Assembly: GCA_022573815.1 (NCBI GenBank)
Contig: JACZTG010000001.1
Location: 859 to 64,858, forward strand
Source: Fidelibacterota bacterium
GTDB taxonomy: Bacteria > Fidelibacterota > SORT01
Length of the DNA stretch: 64,000 nt
Direction: 5' to 3'
Positions within the stretch are counted from its first letter, which is position 1. Each line of letters begins with the position of its first letter. Made by a program: the position numbers and the translations under genes. Shown here piece after piece: positions 175 to 16,934 of the stretch. Below the pieces are notes generated by a model that saw nothing but the letters and a program-made list of their open reading frames with translations, made no database searches and had not been told where the DNA came from.

Positions 175-549
175 ATGGTAGAAGAAGGAAAGGTAACAAT
201 TTTTGTGACGTTCGGACCTGAGATGCCTCAACGGTGCGCTACACCGTTTTATATGGCAAATGTGGCTATGGCTATGGACAATGAGGCGGAAATGATATTT
301 CAGATAGACGGTACGTTGTTACTGAAAAAAGGTGTTGCAGAGGGAATAGTAGCCAAAGAAGGGGGAAAGAAAATAATTGATTTTATAAGAGAAGCAAAAG
401 AAGCAGGTGTGAAAATGCGCGTTTGTTCCGCGTCTCTTCAGCTCCACGATATGACAGAAGATGATTTGATCGAAGAAGTGGACGGCGTGGTAGGAGCCGC
501 TTATATGACAGATGTAGGTATGGACAGCGACTTAGTTTTAAGTTATTAA
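175..549 (+). CDS. DsrE/DsrF/TusD-family sulfur-carrier protein (DsrE3-like)
   Basis: 124 aa. The C-terminal AGVKMRVCSASL is typical of the conserved Cys loop of the DsrE/TusD fold, with a further Cys in QRCATPF. Its position directly upstream of the GcvH-like and hdrCBA genes matches the known sHdr locus context. Confidence 0.55.
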   Translation: MVEEGKVTIFVTFGPEMPQRCATPFYMANVAMAMDNEAEMIFQIDGTLLLKKGVAEGIVAKEGGKKIIDFIREAKEAGVKMRVCSASLQLHDMTEDDLIEEVDGVVGAAYMTDVGMDSDLVLSY

Positions 550-1473: not shown

Positions 1474-2112
1474 ATGCGTTGGGATCACATATTCAATGGT
1501 TGTTATGAATGCGGCATCTGTGTAGCAGCGTGCCCTTCAGCAAGGTTCTACGACTTTAGTCCCCGTGTGTTCGTTCAAACTCTCGAGCGGGAAGATATTG
1601 ACACGTTTTATGAACTGATGAATGATTCCGTTTGGGATTGTTCCCAGTGTTTCTCCTGCACTCGCTGTCCGAGGCAGTCAAATCCCGGCGCTCTTATAAC
1701 CGTAATGCGGGAAGTAGCTGTGAACAACGGCCTGCAATCCGCCAAAGATGCGCTGAAATCATACAGTCGAATTATTTATAAAATTATGTCAACCGGAACG
1801 CAGGTGGCTCCTGATATGCTGCAGCCGGATGCGTTCCCCGATTGGGGTCCTCGTGTGAAGGAGATATCCGATAATCTTGAAGATTGGAGAAGAGCAATTC
1901 CGCCCGAGACGCTGCACACAGTTGAGCTCGCATGGGACGTAAGTATAAAAACGCGCTTGGAACTATTTATGATTTGGAAGCTTACAGGAAATCTTGATAT
2001 GATTCAAAATATCGATGAAGGAATATTTATGATACTTGAGGAAGTGATGGAAGAACTCCTTGAAGAACATGGATATGATATTGATGATTATGATAATATC
2101 ATCGATGATTAA
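1474..2112 (+). CDS. hdrC: Heterodisulfide reductase subunit C-like protein (sHdrC1)
   Basis: Two ferredoxin-type motifs: CGICVAACP and CSQCFSCTRCP. It is followed by the hdrB- and hdrA-like genes. Confidence 0.7.
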   Translation: MRWDHIFNGCYECGICVAACPSARFYDFSPRVFVQTLEREDIDTFYELMNDSVWDCSQCFSCTRCPRQSNPGALITVMREVAVNNGLQSAKDALKSYSRIIYKIMSTGTQVAPDMLQPDAFPDWGPRVKEISDNLEDWRRAIPPETLHTVELAWDVSIKTRLELFMIWKLTGNLDMIQNIDEGIFMILEEVMEELLEEHGYDIDDYDNIIDD

Positions 2113-2135
2113 AAGTTAAAAGAAAGGAACAGATA

Positions 2136-3332
2136 ATGTCCGGCATAACAGTGGATTCGGTAATACCTAAGGTAAGCATGAGAAAGTTCGAAAGAACTGA
2201 AGCGCCGCCTACCGAAGATTATAGAGAAAAATTATTCGAGCTGGAAAAAGCGGGCGAAATCGAAGTGATAAGAGTTCCAGAGCCTTACGTGGAAGTCGAA
2301 ACAAAATACGGAAGATTGAAAAAAATCCCGTTGGACCATACCTGGCATCATAAATCATGCGGTCAATGCGGGCATATTCCCGGATATTCAACGGCAATTT
2401 TCTGGCTCAACAGACAATTCGGTTTTGATTATCACGACCCGAGAGACCAGACCTCATGTACTGCATGGAATTATTATGCTTCTGCCACATCAAATTCAGC
2501 CGCTCAGGCATCAGTGGCAGTTCGAAATTTCGCACAGGCAAAAATTGACGGATATTTTCCGATAATCCATTGTGGTACTAGCTACGGACACTATAAAGAA
2601 GTGCGTTCGGATCTGTTGGAATTTCCTGAATTGAGAGAAAAAGTTCGTAAGGTATTAGCCCGAATGGGAAAAACTTTGGTATTCCCGGAAGAGATTGTGC
2701 ATTATTCGGAATGGGTTCACGTGATGCGACATAAAATTGCAGATAGACAAGTTTTGGACTTCAGCAATTTGACGATTACCGTTCATCCGGCGTGCCATTA
2801 TCATAAACTCGTGGTGGAAGACGCTATTTACGATAAAGAGCTATATAATGGTCAGCGAACTGCTATTGTCAGCGGATTGGTTAAGGCGATGGGAGCGAAA
2901 CTCGCTGATTACTCTACGTGGCATGATTGTTGTGGCTTCGGTTTCCGCCATATACTGGTCAGCAGAGATTTTTCACGTTCATTTGCAACATTGAGAAAAA
3001 TCGAAGTAATGATTAAAGAGGCTAACCCGGATCTTACGCTCACTCATGATACGGGCTGCGTGACTACTCTTGATCAGAGTCAGTTTGCCGCCAAAGCCCA
3101 CAACAAAAAAGTCGGAATTCCCGTGATGTCTGATGCTCAATTTGCGGCATTGTCTATGGGAGCGCATCCATTCAAAGTGTGCCAATTACACTGGCATAAT
3201 ATGGAAATAAGAACAATACTCGAAAAAATGGGAATTGATTATGATAAGGCTTGGGCTGAATTTCAGCTACAAGTCGATCGGATCAAGTCCGGAGAAATTG
3301 ATTACCTAACCTGGGAGGATGCAGATGCCTGA
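2136..3332 (+). CDS. hdrB: Heterodisulfide reductase subunit B-like protein (sHdrB1), two CCG domains
   Basis: 398 aa. It has the Cys-rich CCG signatures HKSCGQCGH and WHDCCGFGFRH and overlaps the start of hdrA by 14 nt. Confidence 0.7.
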   Translation: MSGITVDSVIPKVSMRKFERTEAPPTEDYREKLFELEKAGEIEVIRVPEPYVEVETKYGRLKKIPLDHTWHHKSCGQCGHIPGYSTAIFWLNRQFGFDYHDPRDQTSCTAWNYYASATSNSAAQASVAVRNFAQAKIDGYFPIIHCGTSYGHYKEVRSDLLEFPELREKVRKVLARMGKTLVFPEEIVHYSEWVHVMRHKIADRQVLDFSNLTITVHPACHYHKLVVEDAIYDKELYNGQRTAIVSGLVKAMGAKLADYSTWHDCCGFGFRHILVSRDFSRSFATLRKIEVMIKEANPDLTLTHDTGCVTTLDQSQFAAKAHNKKVGIPVMSDAQFAALSMGAHPFKVCQLHWHNMEIRTILEKMGIDYDKAWAEFQLQVDRIKSGEIDYLTWEDADA

Positions 3333-4386
3333 TCTGCCTGTTTTAGTTATCGGGGGAGGTCCGTGCGGGTTGGAGGCGACCCGGGGAATATCAGACCTTG
3401 GATATAATGTCATACTTGTTGATAAAGCCGAGTTTTTAGGCGGAACGCCTATTTCGGCAGACTACGCTGCGCTGACGCCTGATATGAGAAGCGCGGAAGA
3501 CGCTATGAATGAGATGATCGATGCCATAAAAGATAATCCGTTAGTTGACCTTCGCCTGAATTCATCAGTGATCTCGACTGAGGGCGACGCACCTGATTTG
3601 AAAATCGGAATCAAAAATGGAAAGGGTGAAGAAGTGGTAGATGTAGGCAGTGTCATCGTTTCTACCGGCTTTCAGCATTTTGATCCGGGCAAAGAAACAC
3701 AGATGTACGGATATTATGAATACGACGATGTAATAACTCTTGTGGATGTGGAGCGTATGCTGAAGGCGGGTACTTTCGTCCGTCCTTCCACAGGAGAAAA
3801 ACCGAAACAGGTTTGCTTTATCCAATGTGTTGGAAGCAGGGATCGGCAAATAGGAAATCAGTGGTGTTCCAAAGTGTGCTGCGGAGTCGCAACAAAAGAA
3901 GCAATTGAAATCCGGGATATGGTGCCCGATTGCCGGGTATTCGTTTTTTATATCGACATGAGAATGTATGGATTTTGGGAGGACGAGCTCTACTGGAAAG
4001 CGCAGGAAGAAAAACAGGTGAATTTCATCAGAGGCATTGTCACAGAGATAACGATGCGCGGAGATACTCTTGTGGTCAAAGGTGAAGATACTACTATGGG
4101 CAGACCGATGGAGATACCAATGGATGTTGTAATTTTATCAATTGGTATGGAACCGAGTAAAGGCTCAAAAGATATGGCAAAAATCTTCAAATTACCTTTG
4201 GAACCACACGGTTTTATTGAAACGATCGGTGGAGCGCTGAACACGGTTCAAACTTCCGTTAAAGGAGTATTCGCAGCCGGCGCATCCACAGGACCGGCGG
4301 ATTTGGAAGACTCGATATCAATGGGCGGCGCCGCCGCAATGAAGGCGTGCGCATTCATCAGAAAATCACAATTAGAGACTGCCTAA
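3319..4386 (+). CDS. hdrA: HdrA-like FAD-dependent FeS flavoprotein (short sHdrA type without ferredoxin domains)
   Basis: 355 aa. It has an N-terminal VIGGGPCGLEA dinucleotide fold and the HdrA-specific cluster motif CVGSRD...CSKVCC. Confidence 0.7.
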   Translation: MQMPDLPVLVIGGGPCGLEATRGISDLGYNVILVDKAEFLGGTPISADYAALTPDMRSAEDAMNEMIDAIKDNPLVDLRLNSSVISTEGDAPDLKIGIKNGKGEEVVDVGSVIVSTGFQHFDPGKETQMYGYYEYDDVITLVDVERMLKAGTFVRPSTGEKPKQVCFIQCVGSRDRQIGNQWCSKVCCGVATKEAIEIRDMVPDCRVFVFYIDMRMYGFWEDELYWKAQEEKQVNFIRGIVTEITMRGDTLVVKGEDTTMGRPMEIPMDVVILSIGMEPSKGSKDMAKIFKLPLEPHGFIETIGGALNTVQTSVKGVFAAGASTGPADLEDSISMGGAAAMKACAFIRKSQLETA

Positions 4387-4390
4387 CCGA

Positions 4391-5149
4391 TTGCTTTACG
4401 ACTCAATCACATTTAAGGAAATAGTAGATGCGGATTCCGCTCAGGAATTTATGAAAGAAGCAACCAAGCTAGCCAAAACGTGGGAGCTGGAGGATATTGG
4501 GAGAAAGCTCGAGGCTAAAAGCGCGATAATTTCCGGGATTCTTGCAGAGGATAAGATTGATTCGTTAAATGAAGATGATCTAAAAAAGGTCATCGGAATG
4601 ATTTTTACGATTCGCCGTAAAACCAAAAGGATATTGAAAGCGAACGGTCTTGATAATATCAGATCATCAATAACTGATTTACTTTACGGTGAAAAGCGAT
4701 TAGAAGACCGTTTTGATGAATTCGTCAATTCAATAGAATCTGTAGAGATGAAAATGCGGCTCAACTTTGCCGGCGAGCTCCTGCACTATAGCAACCCCGA
4801 TAAATATTGGTTATGGACGAATTGGATTTGGGATCCTGATACTAAAACAGGTTCTCTGCCGTTAGTGATACAGGATTTTTCCAATCTATCGGGAACGTCA
4901 TTAGGGGATACATATTTGCGAGTTGGTAAAGCTACTCTAATGGTGAATGCAGTTGGACATAAGGTAAGTTTTTCGGATATGGCAAAAGGACTTTTCGGAA
5001 CAAATTTATTCTTAGCGTGTGTTTACGCTGTATATATGTACACGGTGTTTAAAGTGAAATTATCTCAAGAATTCAATAGGATTTTACCCGAGTTGGCGGA
5101 ACTGACACAAAGGGTATTGGGTGTTTACCAAATGGAGCTTAAGAACTAA
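4391..5149 (+). CDS. Conserved hypothetical protein occupying the 'hyp' position of shdrC1B1A-hyp-... loci
   Basis: 252 aa with no recognisable motif. The call rests on position only, as I recall the sHdr locus architecture. Its stop overlaps the next gene's ATG by 1 nt. Confidence 0.4.
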   Translation: MLYDSITFKEIVDADSAQEFMKEATKLAKTWELEDIGRKLEAKSAIISGILAEDKIDSLNEDDLKKVIGMIFTIRRKTKRILKANGLDNIRSSITDLLYGEKRLEDRFDEFVNSIESVEMKMRLNFAGELLHYSNPDKYWLWTNWIWDPDTKTGSLPLVIQDFSNLSGTSLGDTYLRVGKATLMVNAVGHKVSFSDMAKGLFGTNLFLACVYAVYMYTVFKVKLSQEFNRILPELAELTQRVLGVYQMELKN

Positions 5150-6444
5150 TGGGAGATCATAAATACGAAAAATTCGTCCAATTAGATAACGCTATTGTTG
5201 ACGGTGTGGACATTTCAGGTGAATGGAACAAGATGTACGAACCCAGGGAAATCATGGAATATGATTTAACTTATCTGGACAAGGTTATTAATACTCCCGG
5301 CGGTGAATCTATGGGTTGGTGCTATCAATGCGCCAAGTGCATAGGCGTTTGTCCCGTAGATAATGTGGGAAGCTACGGGCCGAGAAAGATATACCGGAAA
5401 CTCCAAACCGGTTATAATCTTTTTGAGGAAGCTGATCTTTGGCTCTGTACTTCCTGCAATAACTGTCTGCGTGTATGTCCAAAAGAAGTTGATATGATGA
5501 AGATAATGCCGGCAATTCGCGAGCAAGCTGTCCTTGACGGAAACGTTCCCGAAGAATTGCAGACTATGCTTCAAAACGTAGCCGAATACGGCAATCCGAT
5601 GGGCGAGTCGCCGCGGAAAAGAGTCAAGTGGACAAAAGATTTGGATGAGACTGTTCGCGATCTTACAAAAGAAGAAGATCCCGGCGCTGTTGATGTCCTC
5701 TGGTATGTAAGCGATTATTTCAGCTATCATAATCGCGGTAATGACGCAGCCAAGGCGATGGTTCGTGTATTCAACAAATTGAATATTGATTACGGTATTT
5801 TAGGAAAAGAGGAAAGGTGCGACGGCGATTCTCAGCGGTTAGTAGGAGAATCAGGTCTTTTTGAACAGCTCGCCGAGCATAACGACGGACTCTTTCAGAA
5901 ATTCGAGCATAACACGCTTGTGGTAAGCGACCCTCACGCCTTTAACGCTTTCAAAAACTTCTATCCAAAAGTCACGGGCAATGAGTACAATGTTCAGCAT
6001 TATACTCAATTCCTGTCGGGCAAGGTGGAAGAATTGAAGTCACTCTATACAACGGAATTCAAGAAAAAAGTCACCTTTCATGACCCGTGCTACTTAGGAA
6101 GACACAACGGAGAGTTTGAGGCTCCCCGCGATCTGATAAATTCAATTCCCGGTGTTGAGTTTGTCGAAATGTACAGGAATCGTCAGCAGGGGTATTGTTG
6201 CGGCGGCGGCGGCGGTGGAATGTGGTTAGATGGATTGGTCGCCGATCATACGACCGAACGTCTGTCGGAAAACAGGGTAAAGGAAGCTGTGGAAGTAGGA
6301 GCGGAGGTATTGGTTGTATGCTGTCCCTACGAAGTGTCCCGTTTTGAAGATGCGGTAAAATCAACCAACAATGACGAAAATCTTGAAGTGTGGGATATTA
6401 TTGAGATAATTGATTTCTGCATCTCCGGCGGAGCTGCAGCGTAA
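5149..6444 (+). CDS. Fused HdrC-HdrB-like protein (ferredoxin-type dicluster N-terminus plus CCG domain C-terminus; sHdrB3 / C2B2-fusion-like)
   Basis: CYQCAKCIGVCP and CTSCNNCLRVCP form the 2x[4Fe-4S] region. The C-terminus has HDPCYLGRHNGEFEAPRDL...GYCCGGGGGGMW, a CCG domain. Confidence 0.65.
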   Translation: MGDHKYEKFVQLDNAIVDGVDISGEWNKMYEPREIMEYDLTYLDKVINTPGGESMGWCYQCAKCIGVCPVDNVGSYGPRKIYRKLQTGYNLFEEADLWLCTSCNNCLRVCPKEVDMMKIMPAIREQAVLDGNVPEELQTMLQNVAEYGNPMGESPRKRVKWTKDLDETVRDLTKEEDPGAVDVLWYVSDYFSYHNRGNDAAKAMVRVFNKLNIDYGILGKEERCDGDSQRLVGESGLFEQLAEHNDGLFQKFEHNTLVVSDPHAFNAFKNFYPKVTGNEYNVQHYTQFLSGKVEELKSLYTTEFKKKVTFHDPCYLGRHNGEFEAPRDLINSIPGVEFVEMYRNRQQGYCCGGGGGGMWLDGLVADHTTERLSENRVKEAVEVGAEVLVVCCPYEVSRFEDAVKSTNNDENLEVWDIIEIIDFCISGGAAA

Positions 6445-6497
6445 GATTTTATTAAGCGTTGAAAGACAAAATAACAATTAAAGAGAACGGCTGACCT

Positions 6498-7004
6498 ATG
6501 GAAAATTCACTTGCTGTCAATTTAGCGGATGCATCCTGGCAACGGTTGCGTTCTATGGCATTGGCAACCGAACGGTATGAAAACTTTGTGGCGCTGGGTT
6601 CATCGAATATGTCAGATGATAAAAGTAACGGGAAATGGACACCGAATTTAAAGATAAACCCGCCTGAGGCTCTGGCGCTGGATTATCTGTCTATGACCAT
6701 AAGAGACGCGTTTGAAAGAGAAAATTCTGAGATAATGCTCCAACTTTCAGGAACCGAGCAAATCCAGCCTCTGGCTTTATCCGAGAAATTGGGAATGGCA
6801 GAACTTTCCTTGAGAGAAAGACTCGGAAATCTTTCTCAATGCGGATTAGTAATGAAAAATCTTGAGAGCGGGGGATATTTACTTACCGATGCGGGTGACG
6901 CTGTTGCGAACCTGATTCGAGATGCGGTGACCAATTTATCCCTGCGGATCGAGAAGGAACTCCCGGAACTCAATATAAAAAAAGAAGAACTCAAACATTG
7001 CTGA
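6498..7004 (+). CDS. Putative winged-helix transcriptional regulator (ArsR/MarR-like fold suspected)
   Basis: 168 aa. The segment IQPLALSEKLGMAELSLRERLGNLSQCGLVMKNLESGGYLLTD resembles an HTH followed by a wing. sHdr loci are known to carry ArsR-type repressors. This is a weak pattern-only call. Confidence 0.3.
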   Translation: MENSLAVNLADASWQRLRSMALATERYENFVALGSSNMSDDKSNGKWTPNLKINPPEALALDYLSMTIRDAFERENSEIMLQLSGTEQIQPLALSEKLGMAELSLRERLGNLSQCGLVMKNLESGGYLLTDAGDAVANLIRDAVTNLSLRIEKELPELNIKKEELKHC

Positions 7005-7241
7005 TTGGCGAGCGCATTGAATTGGGTGATTGTGGAATGGGGATGCCTGTCATCCGCGCATGGCAGGCGCTGAAGAAACAGCCCGTCGGGGGAATAGTCT
7101 GGTTGACGAGTTCACATCCGTGAGCGGAGCCCGATATCAACGCCTGGTGCAGGTCGTCCGGACAGAAGTTGCTGAAGATGGAAGAGGACGCTGAAGGAAA
7201 ACATTTTTACGTTCAAAGGATGAACTGATAAGGGAGAAATA

Positions 7242-7985
7242 TTGAAAATAGTTGTTCCAATGCAATTAGTGCCTGATTTAGTGGAAGACCTTGAAGTAGA
7301 TAACACAGGAAAGGCTTTAAATGAGGAAGATCTAAAATTAAAACTTAATGAATTTGACGATCACGCTCTCGAAGAAGCGATACAGCTGAAGGAATCGGAC
7401 GGCGCTGAAGTGGTGGCGATGACTCTTGACGGAGAAGGCGCAGACAAACTTCTTTTTACCGCTCTGGCAAAAGGCGCCGACAAATGTCTGAAGATAACGG
7501 GTGCCGCAGCATCTGATTCACATCAACGGGCAAAGGTTTTTGCCAATGCTATCAGTTCCGAAGGTTACGATCTTGTGCTTACGGGTGTTCAATCAGTGGA
7601 CGATAGAGACGGTCAGCTGGGTCCTATCTTGGCAACTTATCTCGATGTTCCAAGCGTGAGCGTTGTTTCTAATGTCTCGATATCCGGTAGCACGGTAACT
7701 CTCCGCAAGGAATATTCAGGCGGCTACATGGCTGAGTATGATGTTGAAACGCCTGCTGTGCTTGGAATACAAGCCGCGCGGCAAACGCCGCGATATGCTC
7801 CTGTGAGTAAGATAAAACAGATACAGGAAACTATGAGTATTGACAATACGGAGGCTGGAGATTCAGGGTCAGGAAGTGGAAGCGAAATCACGAAAATGGC
7901 GCCCCCTGCAAAGGGAGAAGGAGCAAAGATGCTTGATTCTGTTGACGAGCTGATTGAAGTGCTGAAAAATGCGGGCGCACTTTAG
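7242..7985 (+). CDS. etfB: Electron transfer flavoprotein beta subunit
   Basis: 247 aa. It has an EtfB-like N-terminus (MKIVVPMQLVPD...), the usual size, and is followed by etfA. Confidence 0.75.
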   Translation: MKIVVPMQLVPDLVEDLEVDNTGKALNEEDLKLKLNEFDDHALEEAIQLKESDGAEVVAMTLDGEGADKLLFTALAKGADKCLKITGAAASDSHQRAKVFANAISSEGYDLVLTGVQSVDDRDGQLGPILATYLDVPSVSVVSNVSISGSTVTLRKEYSGGYMAEYDVETPAVLGIQAARQTPRYAPVSKIKQIQETMSIDNTEAGDSGSGSGSEITKMAPPAKGEGAKMLDSVDELIEVLKNAGAL

Positions 7986-8036
7986 TGAACAGTATTAAAA
8001 AACAGATATTAATTTTATATAATAAATGGAATATAT

Positions 8037-8972
8037 ATGAGCGAACTTTTTGTAGTAACTGAACATCTTAATGGCGATTTCCAGGATATAACGTTTGAAA
8101 TGTTAGGAAAAGCAAAGGAATTGTCAAACGGTGGGAAATGTACAGCCATTGTATTTGGGAATATGAAAGATAAATATGCGGAATTGGGAGCTGCCGATAA
8201 TGTTTTATCCGTAGGTGGAAGCAGCGAATATAATCCCGAAGAATATGCCGCAGCGGTGAAGTCGGCTGTGAGTGAGAAGAATCCGGATTTAGTTCTAATA
8301 GGTTCAACCTCAATGGGGATGGACATCGCATCTCCGGTGGGTACGGGTCTCAATATTCCTGTGGTAGCGTATTGTACGGCTATTGAAGCGTCTGATGGCG
8401 GTTTTTCGTGTACAAGTCAACTTTACGGCGGCAAGATGGACGTGGTTTCTAATGTTCCTTCGCCGGCTATAGTTATGGTGAGTTCCGGAGCGTTCGATGC
8501 CGCAGCAGGAAAAGTTTCCGGTTCGCCCGCCGTTGAAGAATTCAGCGGCGACGCAGGTGCCGGCAAGGTGACGTTCAAATCGCTTATTGAGCCGGAAGCA
8601 GCCGATGTTGACATCACTCAAAGTAATATTATAGTGGCGATCGGAAGAGGAATAGGAAGTAAGGATGATGTAGAAGTTGCTGAAGAGATCGCCGAAGCTT
8701 TGAACGCCGATGTTGCCGGAACAAGACCGCTTATAGATGCGGGTTGGCTGCCGAAATCAAGGCAGGTAGGGAAATCCGGGCTAAAAGTTAAGCCTAAGGT
8801 TTATATCGCTCTCGGAATATCAGGCGCTCCCGAACATATAGAGGGAATGAAAGAATCGTCCACTATAATCGCGATTAACACTGACAAAAACGCTCCGATT
8901 TTCGACGTGGCTCATTATGGAATGACGGAAGACCTTTTTGACGTGTGTGAGGATTTATTGGATAAACTGTAA
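8037..8972 (+). CDS. etfA: Electron transfer flavoprotein alpha subunit
   Basis: 311 aa. The C-terminal FAD-binding region VYIALGISGAPEHIEGM matches the EtfA signature. Confidence 0.75.
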   Translation: MSELFVVTEHLNGDFQDITFEMLGKAKELSNGGKCTAIVFGNMKDKYAELGAADNVLSVGGSSEYNPEEYAAAVKSAVSEKNPDLVLIGSTSMGMDIASPVGTGLNIPVVAYCTAIEASDGGFSCTSQLYGGKMDVVSNVPSPAIVMVSSGAFDAAAGKVSGSPAVEEFSGDAGAGKVTFKSLIEPEAADVDITQSNIIVAIGRGIGSKDDVEVAEEIAEALNADVAGTRPLIDAGWLPKSRQVGKSGLKVKPKVYIALGISGAPEHIEGMKESSTIIAINTDKNAPIFDVAHYGMTEDLFDVCEDLLDKL

Positions 8973-9051
8973 TCCGGTTGTCATATTGAGATATTCCATT
9001 TGGTCTGTCTCGTTGCTTCATTATTAATAACCTGTTAAATGCGAGTAAACT

Positions 9052-11097
9052 TTGTTAACGCAAACAGAACAGATAGCGTTTATACTTCTCACCGTTGTTA
9101 GCATAGCGTTTGCATGGCGTGGTTTCAGCCGATTATTCAAGATTGTCAAGAGTGGAGCTGATACCGACCGGAGCGACGGATTAAGCGTCAGATTCATAAA
9201 GGCTCTTTTTGAAGTTGGAATTCAGAAACCTGTCTTTAAAGCCCGTCGCTGGGTAAGCGTTTTTCACTCATTCATCTTTTTCGGGTTCAGCTTTTACCTC
9301 TTGGTGAACGTGAATGACATCTTGGAAGCGTATGTTGACGGGTGGCATCTTATCGGAGCCGGTACCTTAGCCGGAGTGTTCAATCTCTTTGCGGACATAT
9401 TCAGCATCTTCGTTATTGTCGGAATGAATTTTTTTCTTTATCGGCGATTTGTTACAAAACCGAAAGAACTTGGTTACAACGATAATGTTATGCTTCATCC
9501 CGGTGTAGATTCAGGGGGAATAAAACGGGATTCTCTGTTAGTGGGTGTGTTTATTCTGTTGCATGTGGGCTCAAGATGGCTCGGCACTGTTTTCCATATA
9601 GCGGAATTGGGGCATGGCGATCCGTGGCTTCCTATTGCCAATTTATTTGCGCCTCTCTTTTCATTTATGAGCCATGAGTCCCTTGAAATTGCGATTCATA
9701 TTACGTGGTGGCTTGCAATGGGTTTGATAGTAATTTTTATACCGTATTTCCCGAGGAGCAAACATCTTCATCTAATGGTTGCGCCTGTCAACTTAGCGTT
9801 AGGGCGAAAAACTCCCCCAGGGAGGATGGACGATGTACTGAATATATCTTCTCCGGGAGCTGCGTCTCTCACCGACCTTCCTTGGCCGCAGGTGCTGGAC
9901 GCTTATGCCTGTATAATGTGTAACAGATGTCAGGAAGTCTGTCCCGCTCACACGTCAGGAACTCCACTGAGTCCAGCGGCGTTGGAGATAAACAAGCGGT
10001 ATTTTATCAACGAAAAAGGCGATGAAGTTCTCAACGGCGCAGGCGCGCAAAGTCTGATCGATTATGCTATTTCAGATGAAGCCGTATGGGCCTGCACAAC
10101 CTGCTATGCGTGCGTTCAGGTCTGTCCGGTGGGAAACGAGCCTCTTATGGATATACTGGAATTACGTCGGAATATGGTTTTTGACGGTAGGATGCCGGAC
10201 GAGCTTGCCGATGTGCTTCGGAGCTTAGACGAGCAGGGCAATTCGTTCAGGGAATCTGCAAGAAGGCGAACGCGTTGGACGAAGGATTTAGATTTTGAAA
10301 TAAAAGACGCTAAATCGGAACCCGTGAAGTATTTATGGTATGTAGGCGATTTTGCGTCATACAACCAATCGTGCAGGGACGTGAGCAGAAAATTAGCGCG
10401 GATTCTCCATTCGGCGGGAGTGGATTTCGGAATTATTATGAAAGGCGAAAAATCTGCGGGCAACGATGTTCGCAGGGTTGGCGAAGAAGGATTATTCGAA
10501 GCATTGGCGGAAGAAAATATTGAAACTCTCGCTCAGTGCGATTACGAGGAGATTTTTACTACCGATCCTCATACATATAACGCGCTGCATAACGAATACG
10601 GAAAATTTGGCGCTGAATATAAGATTAAACACTACTCCACACTGTTGAATGAGCTGATTGAAAGCGGAATGATAGAAATTAAAAAGAAAATCGACGCAAA
10701 AGCCACTTATCACGATCCATGCTATCTCGGTCGTTATAACGGAAATTATGAAGCTCCGCGTGACTTGATGAAAAGTTGCGGGGTAGAGCTGGTAGAGATG
10801 CCTCGGAACAGAGAAAACTCTTTCTGCTGCGGCGCGGGAGGCGGAAGAATCTGGATGAAAGACCACGATGATATGACACAGCGTCCGAGTGAGAACAGAA
10901 TAGAGGAGGCGATGGCTCTCGGTGGGATCGAATATTTCACAGTTTCCTGTCCGAAGGACTTTACGATGTATTCCGATGCGGTGAAAACATCCGGCAACGA
11001 AGGGAAGATAGAAGTCAGGGATATTGTTGATTATCTGATGGAAGCAATGGATTTACATGAAGAATCTGCGGCGAAAGAACCTCTGATTACAGAATAG
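9052..11097 (+). CDS. Membrane-anchored HdrD/DsrK-like FeS/CCG oxidoreductase (candidate Etf:quinone oxidoreductase, Emo-like)
   Basis: 681 aa with a TTG start. The N-terminal ~250 aa form 5-6 hydrophobic helices. Then come CIMCNRCQEVCP and CTTCYACVQVCP (two [4Fe-4S] motifs) and a C-terminal CCG domain, YHDPCYLGRYNGNYEAPRDL...FCCGAGGG. Confidence 0.6.
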   Translation: MLTQTEQIAFILLTVVSIAFAWRGFSRLFKIVKSGADTDRSDGLSVRFIKALFEVGIQKPVFKARRWVSVFHSFIFFGFSFYLLVNVNDILEAYVDGWHLIGAGTLAGVFNLFADIFSIFVIVGMNFFLYRRFVTKPKELGYNDNVMLHPGVDSGGIKRDSLLVGVFILLHVGSRWLGTVFHIAELGHGDPWLPIANLFAPLFSFMSHESLEIAIHITWWLAMGLIVIFIPYFPRSKHLHLMVAPVNLALGRKTPPGRMDDVLNISSPGAASLTDLPWPQVLDAYACIMCNRCQEVCPAHTSGTPLSPAALEINKRYFINEKGDEVLNGAGAQSLIDYAISDEAVWACTTCYACVQVCPVGNEPLMDILELRRNMVFDGRMPDELADVLRSLDEQGNSFRESARRRTRWTKDLDFEIKDAKSEPVKYLWYVGDFASYNQSCRDVSRKLARILHSAGVDFGIIMKGEKSAGNDVRRVGEEGLFEALAEENIETLAQCDYEEIFTTDPHTYNALHNEYGKFGAEYKIKHYSTLLNELIESGMIEIKKKIDAKATYHDPCYLGRYNGNYEAPRDLMKSCGVELVEMPRNRENSFCCGAGGGRIWMKDHDDMTQRPSENRIEEAMALGGIEYFTVSCPKDFTMYSDAVKTSGNEGKIEVRDIVDYLMEAMDLHEESAAKEPLITE

Positions 11098-11106
11098 GAG
11101 AGAAGT

Positions 11107-11553
11107 ATGAGCGACAGCACACAACTAAAATTTCCTGCCGACCGATATTACCATTCATCCAATCATATGTGGGCTAAGGAGACGGATGAAAACGGTGAAA
11201 TACTGGTAGGCATTGATGCGTTAGCGCTCGATTCGCTGGGTGAAATAGCCTATGCGTCTTTTGTTGAGATAAATACGGAAGTTAAAGCAGGCGACTCTAT
11301 CGGTACGCTTGAATCCGCCAAGATGACCACCGAAATATTCTCTCCCATATCCGGCGTGGTATCAGCTGTGAACGACATAGTACCGGAAACTCCGCTGCTT
11401 ATCAACGAACAGCCCTACGGTGAGGGTTGGCTGGTTGTTATCCGTGCGTCAGCTTGGGAAGCTGAATGCGCTGATTTAATATCTGGCGAAGAGATTTTTG
11501 AATGGTCACAGAATGAAATCGCAAGATATGAAACGGAAAATAATCAGAACTGA
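11107..11553 (+). CDS. lbpA: Second GcvH-like lipoate-binding protein (LbpA paralog)
   Basis: 148 aa. GTLESAKMTTEIFSPISGVV carries the lipoyl-lysine motif. Its TGATG overlap couples it to the downstream ligase gene. Confidence 0.6.
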   Translation: MSDSTQLKFPADRYYHSSNHMWAKETDENGEILVGIDALALDSLGEIAYASFVEINTEVKAGDSIGTLESAKMTTEIFSPISGVVSAVNDIVPETPLLINEQPYGEGWLVVIRASAWEAECADLISGEEIFEWSQNEIARYETENNQN

Positions 11554-12677
11554 TGGACTTGCGTCTTATAAAAGAGAACGGAGTCAGTGGCAGTTCCGGT
11601 TTAGCTGCTGACGAATCAATGGCTCTCAGGGTGGGGAGTGAAAAATCCCGTCCAACCCTAAGGCTCTATACCTATGATTCCTACAGCGCTCTTGTAGGAA
11701 GATTCCAAAACATTCAGAAAGAACTTAATCTCGAATATTGTCTCCAAAACTGTGTGGAATTTAACAGGCGACCCACAGGCGGAGGCGCAATTATTATGGG
11801 CGCAGACCAGCTCGGCGTCGCGTTAGCGTTGAAAGGAAACAAAACCGATACATATCATCGCGCTCGAGTATTGATGAAACAGTTTTCTGAGGGAACGGTG
11901 AAAACGCTTTCGAAGTTCGGTATCGAAGCTTCGTTCCGCGGGAAGAATGATATTGAGGTTGATGGAAGAAAAATCGCCGGATTGGGACTGCATAAAACAA
12001 GGACAGGCGGTCTTCTTTTTCACGCTTCAATTCTTGTAAACCTTGACGTGGAGCTAATGCTCAACGTATTGAGAACTCCCCTTAAAAGAATAACTGATAA
12101 AGCGGTTAAACTCGTTTCCGGCAGGATTACAACTGTGCGTAAACTTTTATCAAATGATATAACTGTAGATGAATTCAGCGCCGAGTTGGAAAAAGGTTTT
12201 TCTAAAGTATTCGGAGTAAATCTGATAAAGGGAGACTGGAGCAGTGAAGAAATCGGAGAATCTAATAAGTTGGAAGCAGAAAAATATCTGACAGAAAAAT
12301 GGATCTATTCTAAATCAAATGTCAAGGAGATGAATGGGAGAGCGGTCAGAAAAACAGAGGGTGGATTATTAGAGGTATCTGTAAATTTAGCGGGAAACAC
12401 GCTCAAAAAAGTGCAGATCGGCGGAGACATTTACGTTTCCGAAAACGCGCTGGCAGATTTGGAGTTCAGCCTCGCCTGGCATTCCGCTGCCTCTGATAAG
12501 ATAAAGGAAACTTTGAAACGGGTGTATAAAAAAAGAGAAAATGAATTTTCCAGGATCAGCTTTGATGACTTATATAACGGCGTACAGGATGCTGTGAAAG
12601 ACGCTTCTAATAACAGAACGGATATTGAAACCATGCCTTACGGCTGTTTCGTTAAAACGGATGGAAGTTATGCCTGA
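11553..12677 (+). CDS. lplA: Lipoate-protein ligase A-like enzyme (sLpl(AB)-type), with a C-terminal accessory domain
   Basis: 374 aa. NRRPTGGGAIIMG and IEVDGRKIAGLG match the BPL/LplA/LipB catalytic domain, including the conserved Lys. Confidence 0.65.
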   Translation: MDLRLIKENGVSGSSGLAADESMALRVGSEKSRPTLRLYTYDSYSALVGRFQNIQKELNLEYCLQNCVEFNRRPTGGGAIIMGADQLGVALALKGNKTDTYHRARVLMKQFSEGTVKTLSKFGIEASFRGKNDIEVDGRKIAGLGLHKTRTGGLLFHASILVNLDVELMLNVLRTPLKRITDKAVKLVSGRITTVRKLLSNDITVDEFSAELEKGFSKVFGVNLIKGDWSSEEIGESNKLEAEKYLTEKWIYSKSNVKEMNGRAVRKTEGGLLEVSVNLAGNTLKKVQIGGDIYVSENALADLEFSLAWHSAASDKIKETLKRVYKKRENEFSRISFDDLYNGVQDAVKDASNNRTDIETMPYGCFVKTDGSYA

Positions 12678-13644
12678 GCTCCTAACTCTGCCGGAAAATG
12701 TGACCGAGTTCCAAGTTGACCCGAATTGTATGTCTATTCGTCGGAGGAATTTTTCAAACGAAATTACTTTTCATATGCCCGGCCTCAAGACGCACCGGAC
12801 TTCAGAAATTGAAGGTTCATTGACGGAATTTGTTTCTCTGAGTGTGACGGGTTCAGCCTGCGCATTGAGCTGCGAGCACTGCAAAACGGAAGTGCTGAAG
12901 GGAATGGTGGATCTGACAGCCGAAGGGGGTTCTTTATATGATACCTGCCAGCGATTAGCGGAAAAGGGCGCACGGGGAGTTTTGGTCTCAGGCGGCAGTG
13001 ACCTGAAAGGCAGAGTCCCACTGTTGCAGCACGTGCCCGATTTGATAAGGATTCGAAAGGAATTAGGTTTGATTATTCGTTTGCATGTCGGACTTCCCGA
13101 CGAGGAAACGTGCGCGGCTATCTCGGAAATCGGCATAGACGGAGCGATGCTGGATATCATCGGTGATCAGGAAACAATATCCGATGTCTATCATCTGTCG
13201 GCTACGCCGGATGATTACGGAATGGCATTGGAAAATCTACAGCGATACAATGTGCCGACAATTCCGCATATTATCATCGGGCATTATTTCGGAAAGATGA
13301 AAGGTGAATGGAACGCGCTTCAGATGATTAAGAATAACCCGCCGAAAATTTTGGTACTGGTAATATTGATGCCGCTCACGGGAACGCCTATGGCAAACGT
13401 TTTACCTCCTTCAATGGACGAAATCGGATTGTTTTTTCAGACAGCCCGGATTGCATTACCAGAGACTCCTGTTATGCTGGGATGCGCCAAGCCGATAGGC
13501 GAAATGAAGCTGGGAGTAGATAAATTAGCCCTTGAAACGGGATTGAACGGAATCGCTTACCCCGCTGACGGGATAGTGGGTCAATCCGAACAACTCGGAT
13601 TAAAGCCGAATATCGTAAATGCTTGTTGTGGAGTAACCTGGTAA
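12661..13644 (+). CDS. Radical SAM protein (LipS1/LipS2-type lipoyl synthase candidate)
   Basis: The CALSCEHC motif (CxxxCxxC) lies near the N-terminus. I moved the start to ATG 12661 (MEVMPELL), which removes most of the overlap with the ligase gene. The longest ORF begins at 12625. Confidence 0.5.
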   Translation: MEVMPELLTLPENVTEFQVDPNCMSIRRRNFSNEITFHMPGLKTHRTSEIEGSLTEFVSLSVTGSACALSCEHCKTEVLKGMVDLTAEGGSLYDTCQRLAEKGARGVLVSGGSDLKGRVPLLQHVPDLIRIRKELGLIIRLHVGLPDEETCAAISEIGIDGAMLDIIGDQETISDVYHLSATPDDYGMALENLQRYNVPTIPHIIIGHYFGKMKGEWNALQMIKNNPPKILVLVILMPLTGTPMANVLPPSMDEIGLFFQTARIALPETPVMLGCAKPIGEMKLGVDKLALETGLNGIAYPADGIVGQSEQLGLKPNIVNACCGVTW

Positions 13645-13655
13645 AAGGGATAATA

Positions 13656-14747
13656 ATGGCAACTGAGATGTTAGCTCTGAGTGAGCAAAAGGAAATGCGG
13701 AATTTAAGCCCCGATTATGTGAGGATAAGCGCGGCGGCGGCAATCGAGCTGGGGCTAAAGCCGGGTCGGCTTGACAGGTGTAACTGTGGATGTATCAACT
13801 TGCTTCAGAATTATCCTGAAGGCTGTTACGCGAATTGCAGCTATTGCGGATTGGCCAGGGAACGTCCCGGTATTGCAGAAGAAAATTCGTTTATCAGAGT
13901 TGATTGGCCCCTTTATCCAACGGAGCAGGTGGCGGAGAAAATAGCTGAAAGGGAAGCGAATGGCGGGGTCGGAAGAGTTTGTATTGCGCAGGTGCAGGAT
14001 CATCGGGCAAACGCAGATCTTCTAAGTATGACGAAAATTGTTCACAGCGCGGCTCCTGACGTGCCTATCTCTGCTTTGGTTACAGCGACACTGATGGACA
14101 GACAGGTTCTTGCGGAGATAAAAGAAGCCGGAGCGGATATTATCGGAATCGGGATGGACGCCGCCACAGAAGAGATTTTTTATAATACCCGCGGAAAAGG
14201 CGCAAAGGGTCCCCACGATTGGAATTATCACTGGGAAATTGTAAATCTTGCCCGCGAGATGTACGGCGCTTATAAAGTGAATTGCCATATCATCATCGGA
14301 TTGGGCGAGACCGACAGGGATTTGACGAACATCTTTTATAAATGTAAGGAAGAGCAGTTGTCGTGCTACCTGTTCTCATTCAATCCTGAGCCGGGAACGG
14401 CATTGCAGGATTCGGAACGTCAGCCGATAGCCAGGCATCGGCGTATTCAGCTGGTCAAACAGTTGATAGAAAATAATGGACTTTCAAAAGACGCATTGGA
14501 ATTTGATAAAAACGGATTTATCTCGAATATAGATTATTCCGCTGATATTATTAATTTAACAGTGAATGAAGGAATCGCGTTTATGACGGACGGATGTCCC
14601 GATAGAGATGGTGTGATGGCGTGCAACAGACCATGCGGTTCCTACAGACCCGGAGAGGAATTCCGGGATTATCCATTTCCGCCAATGTCGAAAGATATAG
14701 AAGTGATTCAAAACGAGATGCGTCTAAATGAGGTAATCACCGCGTAA
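13656..14747 (+). CDS. Radical SAM protein with an extra N-terminal Cys cluster (LipS1/LipS2-type candidate)
   Basis: CYANCSYC is the radical SAM CxxxCxxC motif, preceded by the CNCGC extra Cys cluster and followed by a second Cys group (CPDRDGVMACNRPC). The start was set at ATG 13656, which has an aaagggataata RBS. The longest ORF begins at 13623. Confidence 0.5.
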   Translation: MATEMLALSEQKEMRNLSPDYVRISAAAAIELGLKPGRLDRCNCGCINLLQNYPEGCYANCSYCGLARERPGIAEENSFIRVDWPLYPTEQVAEKIAEREANGGVGRVCIAQVQDHRANADLLSMTKIVHSAAPDVPISALVTATLMDRQVLAEIKEAGADIIGIGMDAATEEIFYNTRGKGAKGPHDWNYHWEIVNLAREMYGAYKVNCHIIIGLGETDRDLTNIFYKCKEEQLSCYLFSFNPEPGTALQDSERQPIARHRRIQLVKQLIENNGLSKDALEFDKNGFISNIDYSADIINLTVNEGIAFMTDGCPDRDGVMACNRPCGSYRPGEEFRDYPFPPMSKDIEVIQNEMRLNEVITA

Positions 14748-14750
14748 ATT

Positions 14751-15743
14751 ATGGTAAAACCGATACGATTGATAGATTTAGGAGCGATTGACGGCATAAT
14801 GACTCAGGCGGTGTATCACGCGGTAGCGGAGAAAATGGATGAGTCAACGCCCGATACCATAATACTGAACAGCACAAAATCTCCGTATGTTTGTTTTGGC
14901 TATCATCAGGATGCGGAAAGTGTCATAGATTTGGATGTGTGCAGAAAATTAAATGTACCTGCGGTTCGCCGTAAATTGGGCGGAGGCGCTACTTATCTTG
15001 ATGAAAATCAGCTCTTTTACCAGCTGGTATTTCAAAAATCGGAATTGCCGGCAAATTTCAGGAATGTTTATGCGAAAATGTTGGAAGCGCCCGTGAAAAC
15101 CCTAAAATCGTTTGGACTTAACGCAAAACTAAAAGATATAAACGAGATAGAGGTTGACGGCAAACGGATTGCCGGAACGGGTGGCGGGCAAATAGGCGAT
15201 GCGTGTGTTGTTGTGGGGAACTTTTTATTCGATTTCGATTTTGAAGCTATGTCTTCATTATGGAAAGCTCCATGGGATTCTTTCCGAACACTTGCGGGAA
15301 AAGCGCTTAGGAACCACATTACAACTCTTTGGGAATACGACAGTTCATTCAGCAAAGAAATCATATCGTCGCAACTGATAATAGATTTTTCAGCTGTTTT
15401 TCAAAGACCGATTCAGCCGGGAGAATTAACTTCAGATGAGAAAGAACTCTCGGAGGAATTATCTGAGAAATTGAGCTCAACAGAGTTTGTTGTTGATACC
15501 AATAAAAACGGTGCGTCGCCAAGACCGCTTAAAATTTCTAACGGAGTTTTTATACACGCTGAAAATTATTCTTTGGGAGTAAATAGAATACGCGGCAGCT
15601 TTACGGTGGCAAATAATTTCATAGAAGAATCAATAATCGAGCTGCGGAATGGCAATTTATGGGAAGCAATTGATGTTGATCTTTATGGAATAGAGATTGC
15701 TGATTGGACAAATCATATTAAAATTGAATTGCGTGCTGCCTGA
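14751..15743 (+). CDS. Second LplA/LipB-family protein (lipoate/octanoyl transferase paralog)
   Basis: 330 aa. RRKLGGGATYLDENQLFYQ and IEVDGKRIAGTG parallel the motifs of the ligase at 11553. Confidence 0.5.
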   Translation: MVKPIRLIDLGAIDGIMTQAVYHAVAEKMDESTPDTIILNSTKSPYVCFGYHQDAESVIDLDVCRKLNVPAVRRKLGGGATYLDENQLFYQLVFQKSELPANFRNVYAKMLEAPVKTLKSFGLNAKLKDINEIEVDGKRIAGTGGGQIGDACVVVGNFLFDFDFEAMSSLWKAPWDSFRTLAGKALRNHITTLWEYDSSFSKEIISSQLIIDFSAVFQRPIQPGELTSDEKELSEELSEKLSSTEFVVDTNKNGASPRPLKISNGVFIHAENYSLGVNRIRGSFTVANNFIEESIIELRNGNLWEAIDVDLYGIEIADWTNHIKIELRAA

Positions 15744-16906
15744 TGGTTAAACTGCTAAAAAAATATCTGTCTGACCCGTTCCTGAAGCGGCTTTACAGTG
15801 AGATTCGAAAAGCAGGCTCTCTCCGGTCCATCTCTGTGGACATCACTCACGAGTGCAATATCCGGTGCAGAGGGTGTTATTTTTTCAGCGAGGGAATGGA
15901 AGAGTCTGAGTCTCCTCCCGATGAAAACAAATTTGATGCGTTTATAGAACGAGAGCTCGAACGGGGAACTAATTTTGTCACTGTTGTGGGAGGCGAACCG
16001 AGTCTCATGCTGGGGAGACTGAAAAAACTTCATTCAAATTTTCATATAAATGTTTCAACAAACGGTCTTATAAAAATACCATATGAAGGGTTCGAGTCAA
16101 TGCCTATCGGTGTTTCGGTATGGGGAGATAATCAGACAGACAGATATATGCGAGGCGGCGGAAACGTTGATACATTCGCGATAGCGCTGAAGAATTACAA
16201 AGACGATCCAAGAGCGTTCTGGTACTATACTGTGGCTCCGGGACGGAAGAATGAGATTGAGCGGGTAGTGGAGAAGTGTATAAACAACGGTAATCAGGTT
16301 TTATTTAATTTTTACGGCGATTTGTTAGGATTTGGCGGGGAATTGGATTCCGGCAGCGGTTTTGACGAAGTGAGAATTGAGATAGACCGAATGATCAGCC
16401 TCTACCCTGATAAGATGTTTATGAGTTCTTACCTGAGTAAAATCGTTTCAACAGGCACTTTATACGGTTTGAAATGGGGACATGAAGTATGCACGAGTTT
16501 GAGCGCGAATCACGAGGCGAATTTCGAAAGATTGAAAAACGGAAATCCTTATAACCCGCACTTCAGAGCTTATAATGCTGATTTGGAATCTACTCGTAGA
16601 TGCTGTACCGGAATCAACCGTTCGTGCCATACTTGTTTCGATGTCTGGGAGCATTTTTCGTGGGTAATTCTCAATATGAAAAAACATATCGGATCTAAGC
16701 AGGAATTCAGTAACTGGCTAACGACTATGTATCTGTTTTATCTTATAAACCGATTGGTGAATTTTGATGAAGGGATCAAGCTACTGCCGGAAATCCACAA
16801 ACGGCTTGGAAATACGACTAAGAGAGAATCACATAATATAGATAGAATCAAAATTTCTGCTTTCGCTACCGTGGAAAGCGGGTTAATGGAGATTACCGAT
16901 CCCTGA
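15743..16906 (+). CDS. Third radical SAM enzyme, carrying an additional C-terminal Cys cluster
   Basis: ITHECNIRCRGCYF is the radical SAM motif. The C-terminal RRCCTGINRSCHTCFD cluster could hold an auxiliary FeS cluster. Confidence 0.5.
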   Translation: MVKLLKKYLSDPFLKRLYSEIRKAGSLRSISVDITHECNIRCRGCYFFSEGMEESESPPDENKFDAFIERELERGTNFVTVVGGEPSLMLGRLKKLHSNFHINVSTNGLIKIPYEGFESMPIGVSVWGDNQTDRYMRGGGNVDTFAIALKNYKDDPRAFWYYTVAPGRKNEIERVVEKCINNGNQVLFNFYGDLLGFGGELDSGSGFDEVRIEIDRMISLYPDKMFMSSYLSKIVSTGTLYGLKWGHEVCTSLSANHEANFERLKNGNPYNPHFRAYNADLESTRRCCTGINRSCHTCFDVWEHFSWVILNMKKHIGSKQEFSNWLTTMYLFYLINRLVNFDEGIKLLPEIHKRLGNTTKRESHNIDRIKISAFATVESGLMEITDP

Positions 16907-16934
16907 TTTTGATTCAAAACAGGAGGAGCGAAAA

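Follow-up and report, generated by a model that had tools for sequence, protein, structure and literature searches.

How do electrons released by sulfur oxidation in the cytoplasm enter the respiratory chain? This question is raised by a locus in a 64,000-nucleotide stretch of the Fidelibacterota bacterium assembly GCA_022573815.1 (contig JACZTG010000001.1, positions 859 to 64,858; the whole stretch is hereafter called the window), in which etfB and etfA, encoding the two subunits of an electron-transfer flavoprotein (Etf), and emo, encoding a 681-residue membrane-anchored iron-sulfur protein, lie between sHdr genes for sulfur oxidation and genes for lipoate attachment. It is likely that these three genes represent the EtfAB-EMO module of a type II sHdr-LbpA system, which would conduct sulfur-derived electrons downhill to menaquinone. 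The basis for this module consists of gene identities, fold, cofactor ligands, conserved synteny, and the paralogy between sHdrB3 and EMO. The initial annotation had suggested an Etf step between sulfur-derived electrons, or electrons for lipoate reduction, and the quinone pool; this is supported by the type II synteny and by the identity of EMO, and it is also a proposal that has already been published. The Etf/EMO observation holds and was read correctly, but it is not new; what is new here is which cofactor ligands this EMO clade keeps and which it has lost.

A type II sHdr system has been described as shdrC1B1AHB3 together with etfAB in one syntenic cluster (Tanabe 2024, PMC11094781; repeated in PMC11582611). 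In its passage on this cluster, Tanabe 2024 (PMC11094781) gives the arrangement as shdrC1B1AHB3-etfAB-emo, crediting Cao 2018, Justice 2014, and Kümpel 2024, and EtfAB/EMO have been proposed to send electrons to menaquinone (PMC11094781; PMC11582611). Type II systems were counted in 130 assemblies, and Marinisomatota is among the phyla named for type I or type II sHdr (PMC11094781). In the window, shdrC1, B1, A, H, B3, etfB, and etfA follow one another in that order, all on the plus strand, within 1474-8972. EtfB and EtfA were said to be encoded directly upstream of the 681-residue protein, and the open reading frames (ORFs) are found exactly there, with Pfam in agreement and 79 bp between the end of etfA and the start of emo. 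The placement of this set between sHdr and lipoate genes also holds, with sHdrC1/B1/A/H/B3 upstream and LbpA, a lipoate-protein ligase, and LipS1/LipS2 downstream. sHdrB3 is an HdrC-HdrB fusion with Fer4 domains at residues 58-114 and one CCG domain at 308-393. The accessory genes of type II systems are present as well (two LbpA, sLpl, LipS1/S2, and DsrE), and TusA and a second DsrE are encoded on the same public contig shortly before the window begins (L001). The window therefore holds a complete type II sHdr-LbpA cluster, shdrC1B1AHB3-etfBA-emo-lbpA-slpl-lipS1S2. A chance origin of these gene assignments is excluded. The Etf/EMO module has the same gene set and order as the published type II module, with no difference; the published type II accounts do not mention, in their passages on the cluster, the TGA-containing TusA-like ORF between shdrB3 and etfB or the fused FeS-NrfD subunit of the downstream molybdenum (Mo) enzyme, both of which are described below.

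The product of emo is a member of the EMO/EtfD family (ETF:menaquinone oxidoreductases), as indicated by homology over its whole length and by a top structural match to 9OJN, the M. smegmatis EtfD, together with features resembling those of the Syntrophus aciditrophicus enzyme (SaEMO). A phmmer comparison with 9OJN_A covers both the membrane and the soluble parts (E 3.1e-82), and an AlphaFold2 model built from 30 homologues (pLDDT 92.7, pTM 0.90) retrieves 9OJN first in Foldseek (TMq 0.86, TMt 0.80, E 4.4e-37), with HdrB subunits trailing distantly behind. An NCBI entry named (Fe-S)-binding protein [Candidatus Marinimicrobia bacterium] has exactly the same sequence (100% identity). Matches to the NCBIfam models DsrK, TmcB, HmcF, and TfrB lie far below their cutoffs (DsrK 50.8 vs 400; TmcB 62.9 vs 735), so that the comparison with Emo and DsrMK suggested in the initial annotation comes out on the EMO/EtfD side. 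The two [4Fe-4S] motifs and the CCG domain noticed there are both present: the CX2CX2CX3CP motifs are C287/290/293/297-P and C348/351/354/358-P, and Pfam places 4Fe-4S dicluster domains at residues 282-361 and CCG at residues 552-634 (1.4e-18). The architecture is, as proposed, that of an Etf:menaquinone oxidoreductase, matching the solved 9OJN and the features reported for the Syntrophus enzyme. The N-terminal third is indeed a polytopic membrane domain, with five helices and not six: Kyte-Doolittle analysis gives five hydrophobic segments in the N-terminal ~250 residues, and AlphaFold2 gives helices at 4-33, 66-94, 105-135, 156-186, and 208-235, with short connecting helices after helices I and IV. 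Loops 34-65 and 136-155 and the segment after 235 are rich in Lys/Arg and loops 95-104 and 187-207 contain none, and this positive-inside pattern indicates that the N-terminus lies outside and that the FeS domains are cytoplasmic, on the same side as Etf. The adjacency of the genes suggests that this EMO would accept electrons from EtfAB and reduce (methyl)menaquinone.

Cofactor ligands were compared in an alignment of 137 EMO sequences, comprising 10 close homologues and 127 representatives at 31-52% identity. SaEMO has been solved by cryo-EM, alone and with EtfAB (preprint 10.64898/2026.08.18.745454), and its residues were mapped by way of the CPHG-pattern representatives P0182 and P0208 and the alignment with 9OJN. 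A 706-residue sequence, P0124, was considered as the Syntrophus EMO and rejected, as its residues disagree with the published numbering. A search of the membrane helices for conserved His pairs, which had been recommended, leads to H72 and H240, conserved in 136/137 and 137/137 sequences, respectively; they align with Ms H78/H241 and hence with the proximal-heme pair H87/H251 of SaEMO. All eight Cys residues of the cubane clusters are present in 137/137. The position of the canonical distal-heme His, residue 222, is His in 107/137 sequences (WWLH) and Ala in the clade of the window (WWLA). This clade has instead a His at 171 in transmembrane (TM) helix IV, in the motif ILLHVG, which occurs in 20/137 sequences and never together with H222 (0/137). 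According to the helix boundaries, H171 is located approximately mid-membrane, ~9 residues above the level of H72. We do not claim H171 as a replacement ligand for the distal heme, as a mid-membrane site could equally line a central quinone pocket; the number of hemes in this EMO is inferred. All three heme His residues have been described as conserved across EMO-like membrane domains (10.64898/2026.08.18.745454); in the alignment, the window's EMO clade and a large Chloroflexota-rich clade are exceptions to this statement.

The soluble domain is altered as well. The ligand positions of FeS4, in the N-terminal CCG half, are all non-Cys in this EMO (D433, S468, A469, D505, and T508), so that three FeS clusters are predicted, not four. 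For FeS3, in the C-terminal CCG half, C557, C592, C593, C633, and H507 are kept, and the fifth Cys is D636; this D-variant CCG pattern occurs in ~41/137 family sequences. The ten-Cys double CCG site of HdrDE/DsrMK-type enzymes is incomplete in this EMO, with five Cys missing. FeS4 is already variable between the solved enzymes, being [4Fe-5S] in Sa and [3Fe-4S] in Ms (10.64898/2026.08.18.745454), and the window EMO would extend this variability to complete loss. A parallel is found within the same cluster: the alignment of sHdrB3 (431 residues) with residues 259-662 of EMO, the entire soluble part, spans 414 residues and shows 36% identity (E 3e-87), and the two have in common the single-CCG ligand pattern D..DPH..C..CC..CPx[D/E] (VSD / DPH / HDPC / CCG / CPxE). 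sHdrB3 and the soluble domain of EMO are close paralogues.

The best PDB relative of EtfB is 1O94_C, the AMP-containing non-bifurcating ETF of Methylophilus methylotrophus (E 1.7e-30), and those of EtfA are 3CLU_D/1O94_D (E 1.4e-46); bifurcating ETFs score nearly as high in the PDB ranking against both subunits. The partner-recognition loop PRYA is found in EtfB. The nucleotide loop of EtfB, GVQSVDDRDGQLGP, agrees with neither of two reference loops, DGDTAQVGP of the bifurcating 5OL2_B and DDDCNQTGQ of the human protein; written as DDRDGQLGP, it is identical to the bifurcating form at 5/9 positions and to the human form at 4/9. Both the PDB ranking and the loop comparison are ambiguous, and we consider a non-bifurcating Etf the more likely.

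Is the association of Etf and EMO with sHdr peculiar to this genome? A genome scan with one genome per species was combined with a family alignment; it drew on the best 80 of at least 600 stretches and is a sample, not a census. Loci were classed by tblastn with the window proteins and by the EMO ligand pattern, and counts refer to loci with at least 2.5 kb of upstream sequence. The five closest EMO homologues inspected are 65-78% identical to the window's. Four of them, from Marinimicrobia (78%), Calditrichaeota (70%), a marine metagenome contig (70%), and the complete Chloroherpeton thalassium genome (67%), show the same shdr-etfBA-emo-lbpA-lipS synteny, and the same gene order is found in loci labelled Marinimicrobia, Calditrichaeota, Chloroherpeton thalassium, Chloroflexota, and Actinomycetota. 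The fifth, in a metagenome-assembled genome (MAG) labelled 'Methanobacteriota archaeon' (L008), lies on a contig that is cut just upstream of etfA but retains etfA, emo, and the genes after them; the contig is probably bacterial and was placed in the wrong bin. The etfA-emo-lip-Soe-like genes of this contig (PCBV01000012.1) are 62-72% identical to those of the window.

The EMO of the window belongs to a Cys-poor subfamily in which, among the sampled loci, etfBA is adjacent in 28/29, and 12 of these also carry shdr genes; other EMOs have etf genes nearby in 7/44 loci and shdr genes in 0/44. Conversely, all sHdr-linked EMOs with enough flanking sequence (12/12) fall into the Cys-poor subfamily. 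In a rough neighbour-joining tree, the clade of the window's EMO is sHdr-linked throughout (9/9) and spans Marinimicrobia, Calditrichaeota, Chlorobi, Chloroflexota, and the one MAG labelled archaeal, so that orthologues are by no means confined to beta-oxidation contexts, a finding to which the four syntenic loci add. Five more sHdr-linked EMOs, from four actinobacterial loci and one Anaerolineaceae, are intermingled with EMOs linked to Etf only. Monophyly of sHdr-linked EMOs was considered and rejected, as they occupy at least two places in one subfamily (clade A, and a mixed clade B with the actinobacterial sequences). A Neomarinimicrobiota genome (L029) encodes a different EMO paralogue with 39% identity and no etf or shdr genes nearby. 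The conserved synteny, the sHdr-linked clade, and this separate paralogue together indicate a dedicated module, not a displaced housekeeping pair.

In four other loci (L034, L040, L054, and L058, labelled Opitutaceae, Chloroflexia, Vicinamibacterales, and Ignavibacteria, respectively), an HdrA-like protein (34-38% identical to sHdrA) and an sHdrB3-like protein (37-44%) are encoded together with a Cys-poor EMO. etfBA adjoins in three of them, and in L058 the sequence ends upstream; sHdrB1, sHdrH, and LbpA were not found in these four loci, which may represent another Hdr-Etf-EMO module.

Taken together, a path for the electrons can be proposed. Sulfane sulfur would be delivered via TusA/DsrE carriers and oxidized to sulfite in the cytoplasm by the sHdr complex with lipoylated LbpA. 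Electrons would leave at sHdrB3, the putative donor, and pass one at a time to the FAD of EtfAB, which would carry them to the HdrCB-like cytoplasmic domain of EMO, where they would run from the single CCG cluster through the two cubane clusters to heme b (H72/H240) and finally to a quinone, presumably menaquinone. A shuttle between sHdrB3 and EMO is suggested by the docking of Etf on the homologous domain in SaEMO and by the paralogy of sHdrB3 and EMO. Quinone reduction would be downhill, with no reverse loop; this is expected because the canonical distal-heme His is absent and because sulfur-derived electrons are presumably of low potential. The sulfite would then be taken by the downstream Mo enzyme. 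Which way the electrons run and what Etf pairs with are inferences.

Some points weigh against this path. The role of type II Etf/EMO, as it stands in the literature, is itself a proposal. H171 and H216 could serve as distal-heme ligands, which would enable coupling to the membrane potential. With FeS4 absent and the fifth CCG Cys replaced by Asp, the electron entry point would differ from that in both solved EMOs. Finally, the nucleotide loop of EtfB, matching neither form, could go with AMP or with a second, bifurcating FAD.

A different direction of flow would follow if EtfAB-EMO ran towards the cluster and supplied electrons for reducing the lipoate of LbpA or for feeding LipS1/LipS2, with quinol electrons driven uphill by the membrane potential or with a bifurcating Etf splitting NADH electrons between menaquinone, reached through EMO, and a low-potential acceptor. 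The order of the genes lends itself to such a role, with lbpA2-slpl-lipS1-lipS2 directly after emo, and SaEMO is a precedent in the family for coupling to the membrane potential. The LipT-like FAD/NAD(P)H oxidoreductase proposed as the electron donor of LipS in type I clusters (PMC11094781) was not found within 11107-17951, and a 'Q-x-G-P' is common to EtfB and the bifurcating loop of 5OL2_B. However, among solved structures both Etf subunits come nearest to non-bifurcating ETFs, DGDTAQVGP is not matched, the distal-heme His of the Syntrophus reverse loop is absent, and Etf/EMO accompany sHdr also where the lipoate genes are more distant, with intervening genes (L005). Moreover, the potentials of ordinary Etf are far too positive for radical-SAM clusters. 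We regard this electron supply as unlikely.

It is far less probable still that the genes encode a housekeeping Etf/EMO for fatty-acid or amino-acid oxidation that stands in a sulfur cluster by happenstance. Beta-oxidation, in Syntrophus and mycobacteria, is indeed the best-known role of the EMO family, and among the sampled loci 16/28 etfBA-adjacent ones of the Cys-poor subfamily lack shdr genes; yet position and order are kept in loci of at least five phyla, the window's EMO clade is exclusively sHdr-linked, the L029 paralogue shows that a separate EMO is encoded in a Neomarinimicrobiota genome, and no acyl-CoA dehydrogenase was found among the scanned window ORFs of at least 150 residues. 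As slender is the chance that the 681-residue protein is a membrane disulfide reductase of the HdrDE/DsrMK type, acting for instance on LbpA with quinol, with which Etf would be only loosely associated. Its domain types are those of HdrD plus HdrE, LbpA genes occur on both flanks, and DsrK, TmcB, HmcF, and TfrB give weak matches. These matches, as noted, are far under their cutoffs, five of the ten Cys of the HdrB-type catalytic cluster pair are missing, His507, whose SaEMO equivalent H534 blocks the substrate site, is kept, and the structural match over the whole chain is EtfD. A downhill EtfAB-EMO module serving sHdr hence accounts best for the locus.

Another component may be added to this module. 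The 237-bp 'gap' between orf168 and etfB holds a 76-codon TusA-like ORF whose TTG start overlaps the preceding stop and which matches Pfam TusA above the gathering score (E 2e-10); it probably represents an unannotated selenoprotein family. The family motif is GDCGMGMP...SSHP-U-A.PDI.AWC, with C12 followed by HP-U42. TGA stands at the same codon, after ...SSHP, in the window and in six other, distinct sequences that are 59-76% identical and come from seven loci, two of which carry the same sequence, namely L004 (7959-8186), L007 (7627-7851), L088, L089, L091/L092, and L093. The ORF is situated between shdrB3 and etfB in the window and in the six loci with checkable flanks. The frame downstream of the TGA is conserved (PDI.AWCRSSGQKLL), with 523 differences at third codon positions vs 294 and 229 at the others. 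Cys takes the place of the TGA in L090 (TGC), from a metagenome, and in the database protein P0272 (SSHPCVEPDL). Among the database clusters, 19/23 stop precisely at ...SSHP and two have Trp in place of the TGA, probably owing to code-4 gene calling. TGA ends 15/48 window genes and is therefore not reassigned, and selA/selB are located ~42 kb downstream; no gene for tRNA-Sec or SelD turned up within the window.

From 20 to 37 nt past the UGA, the RNA can form a hairpin, ACGCCUG-GUG-CAGG(U)CGU, which pairs in 87.8% of cells vs ~33% in slid controls; RNAalifold gives no more than an invariant 5-bp core. Covariation does not exceed that of shuffles (161/500), the core overlaps the conserved AWCR codons, and Rfam gives no SECIS match downstream of the UGA. 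There is no NCBIfam model for the TGA-containing TusA-like family. A search of the available literature for TusA-type selenoproteins brought up only Cys-type SirA-like/YedF proteins linked to selenium metabolism. Such a protein would use selenium to relay sulfur or redox equivalents where sHdr and Etf meet. That all three parts hold at once, namely this selenocysteine (Sec) TusA-like relay, the shuttling of EtfAB from sHdrB3 to EMO, and a rewired, simple downhill EMO, is a tentative picture, to which we give somewhat less than an even chance.

The features of the locus are collected in the following table.

Table. Positions of the Etf/EMO genes, the EMO domains and heme-site codons, and the surrounding genes in the window.
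Feature	Position	Strand	Remarks
etfB	7242-7985	+	247 aa; TTG start after AAGGGAG; Pfam ETF E 4.9e-28
etfA	8037-8972	+	311 aa; Pfam ETF 4.8e-31 and ETF_alpha (FAD domain, 1-81/81) 6.9e-32
emo / etfD	9052-11097	+	681 aa; full-length phmmer match 9OJN_A; ETF:menaquinone oxidoreductase family
EMO membrane domain, residues 1-250	9052-9801	+	five TM helices, NarI-like cytochrome b
EMO heme-site codon H72	9265-9267	+	
EMO heme-site codon H171	9562-9564	+	
EMO heme-site codon A222	9715-9717	+	
EMO heme-site codon H240	9769-9771	+	
EMO 4Fe-4S dicluster region	9889-10137	+	Pfam Fer4_8/9/10; eight Cys
EMO HdrB-like CCG / non-cubane-cluster domain	10309-11046	+	FeS3/FeS4 mapping per SaEMO/MsEMO structures
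DsrE	175-549		
lbpA1 (GcvH-like lipoate-binding protein)	604-1026	+	Pfam GCV_H E 9.2e-36
shdrC1	1474-2112	+	Pfam and NCBIfam HdrC-like matches
shdrB1	2136-3332	+	Pfam and NCBIfam HdrB-like matches
shdrA	3319-4386	+	Pfam and NCBIfam HdrA-like matches
shdrH	4391-5149	+	core gene of the sHdr cluster
shdrB3	5149-6444	+	core gene of the sHdr cluster
orf168	6498-7004	+	168 aa; weak winged-helix-like match HVO_A0261_N, E 3e-4
TusA-like ORF, candidate selenoprotein	6998-7228	+	in-frame TGA 7121-7123; directly upstream of etfB
lbpA2	11107-11553	+	Pfam
sLpl ligase	11553-12677	+	Pfam
lipS1	12625-13644	+	NCBIfam LipS1 230.6 bits (at cutoff)
lipS2	13623-14747	+	NCBIfam LipS2 196 bits
second LplA/B-like gene	14751-15743	+	
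third radical-SAM gene	15743-16906	+	Fer4_12
338-aa protein	16935-17951	+	signal-peptide-like N-terminus; no Pfam match
FeS (Fer4_11) + NrfD fusion	17948-19531	+	Pfam
Mo-bisPGD catalytic subunit	19536-22394	+	952 aa; Pfam
selA	48794-50209	+	Pfam SelA E 1.8e-139
selB (Sec-specific elongation factor)	50209-52089	+	winged-helix domains

At the start of the window, a gene for a thioredoxin-like protein lies between DsrE/lbpA1 and shdrC1. orf168, which may encode a regulator, is kept in the closest relative, L004 (174 residues), and is without a counterpart in the Calditrichaeota, Chloroherpeton, and L007 loci. The second LplA/B-like gene and the third radical-SAM gene (14751-16906) are kept in L004-L007. 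Further downstream, the FeS-NrfD and Mo-subunit pair is kept in L004, L006-L010, and L065, which represent several phyla. The N-terminus of the Mo-bisPGD subunit shows no twin-arginine signal (no RR motif), and the NCBIfam scores of the enzyme are below every cutoff. The pair looks like a cytoplasm-facing sulfite:quinone oxidoreductase of the Soe type; an NrfD-anchored Mo enzyme facing the cytoplasm would fit a route by which the electrons of sulfite also go to quinone. It may be related to the 'psrABC' genes that have been read as sulfur reduction in Marinimicrobia.

The EtfAB-EMO link decides at which point the respiratory chain receives the electrons from cytoplasmic sulfur oxidation, which in type II systems would be the quinone. 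In type I sHdr systems, NAD+ is the proposed electron acceptor. The entry point sets how much energy abundant uncultured marine groups such as Marinimicrobia gain from oxidizing sulfur. The primary source of the Etf/EMO proposal is reportedly Kümpel 2024, taken here as cited by Tanabe 2024. Since the idea has been published, the window is one more example and not a new concept; the specifics added are the heme and FeS ligands of this clade, the paralogy of sHdrB3 and EMO, and the presence of the same locus in Chloroherpeton thalassium, at 143030-165069 of CP001100, its public complete genome. A probable new selenoprotein family inside the cluster, which current gene callers cut short at ...SSHP, is a further addition. 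What is most novel lies to the side of the Etf/EMO question, in the candidate selenoprotein and in the changed set of cofactors of this EMO clade.

Among known systems, the window EMO shares its design with the two solved enzymes, SaEMO and MsEtfD. All are single chains in which a NarI-like domain of five TM helices is joined to an HdrC-like dicluster domain and an HdrB-like CCG domain, with a proximal-heme His pair and a His that fills the former substrate site (H507 here); in Syntrophus, as in the window, etfBA is adjacent to the EMO gene. In SaEMO, the five-helix NarI-like domain binds a proximal heme through H87/H251 and a distal stacked heme pair on H233, the HdrC-like domain holds two cubane clusters and the HdrB-like domain the non-cubane FeS3 and FeS4, and H534, the equivalent of H507, blocks the former substrate site (10.64898/2026.08.18.745454). 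In its complex with ETF, EtfB sits on the cytoplasmic domain, with FAD 12-13 A from FeS3 and FeS4 (10.64898/2026.08.18.745454). There are also differences. The distal-heme His (Sa H233, Ms H223) is replaced by Ala in the window EMO, which has a His on TM IV instead; the FeS4 ligands are all absent and the fifth Cys of FeS3 is Asp; and the chain of 681 residues is without the long C-terminal extension of Ms EtfD (1042 residues). The context in the window is sulfur oxidation, with a proposed downhill flow, whereas the solved EMOs belong to beta-oxidation, with a reverse loop in Syntrophus.

HdrDE of Methanosarcina, which has been modelled as EMO-like (10.64898/2026.08.18.745454), has the same three modules and a similar overall shape, but it consists of two polypeptides with a full ten-Cys site, CoM-S-S-CoB as substrate, and methanophenazine as donor, whereas the window EMO is a fused chain that lacks half of the catalytic Cys and has Etf as its partner. 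ETF-QO and FixCX (EtfABCX) likewise join Etf to the quinone pool and belong to an unrelated protein family; ETF-QO is a monotopic FAD/[4Fe-4S] flavoprotein, and no gene for it was seen among the window ORFs scanned. sHdrB3, in turn, differs from EMO in having no membrane domain, in carrying one Cys (ERCDGD) where EMO has Ser, and in being a member of the soluble sHdr complex.

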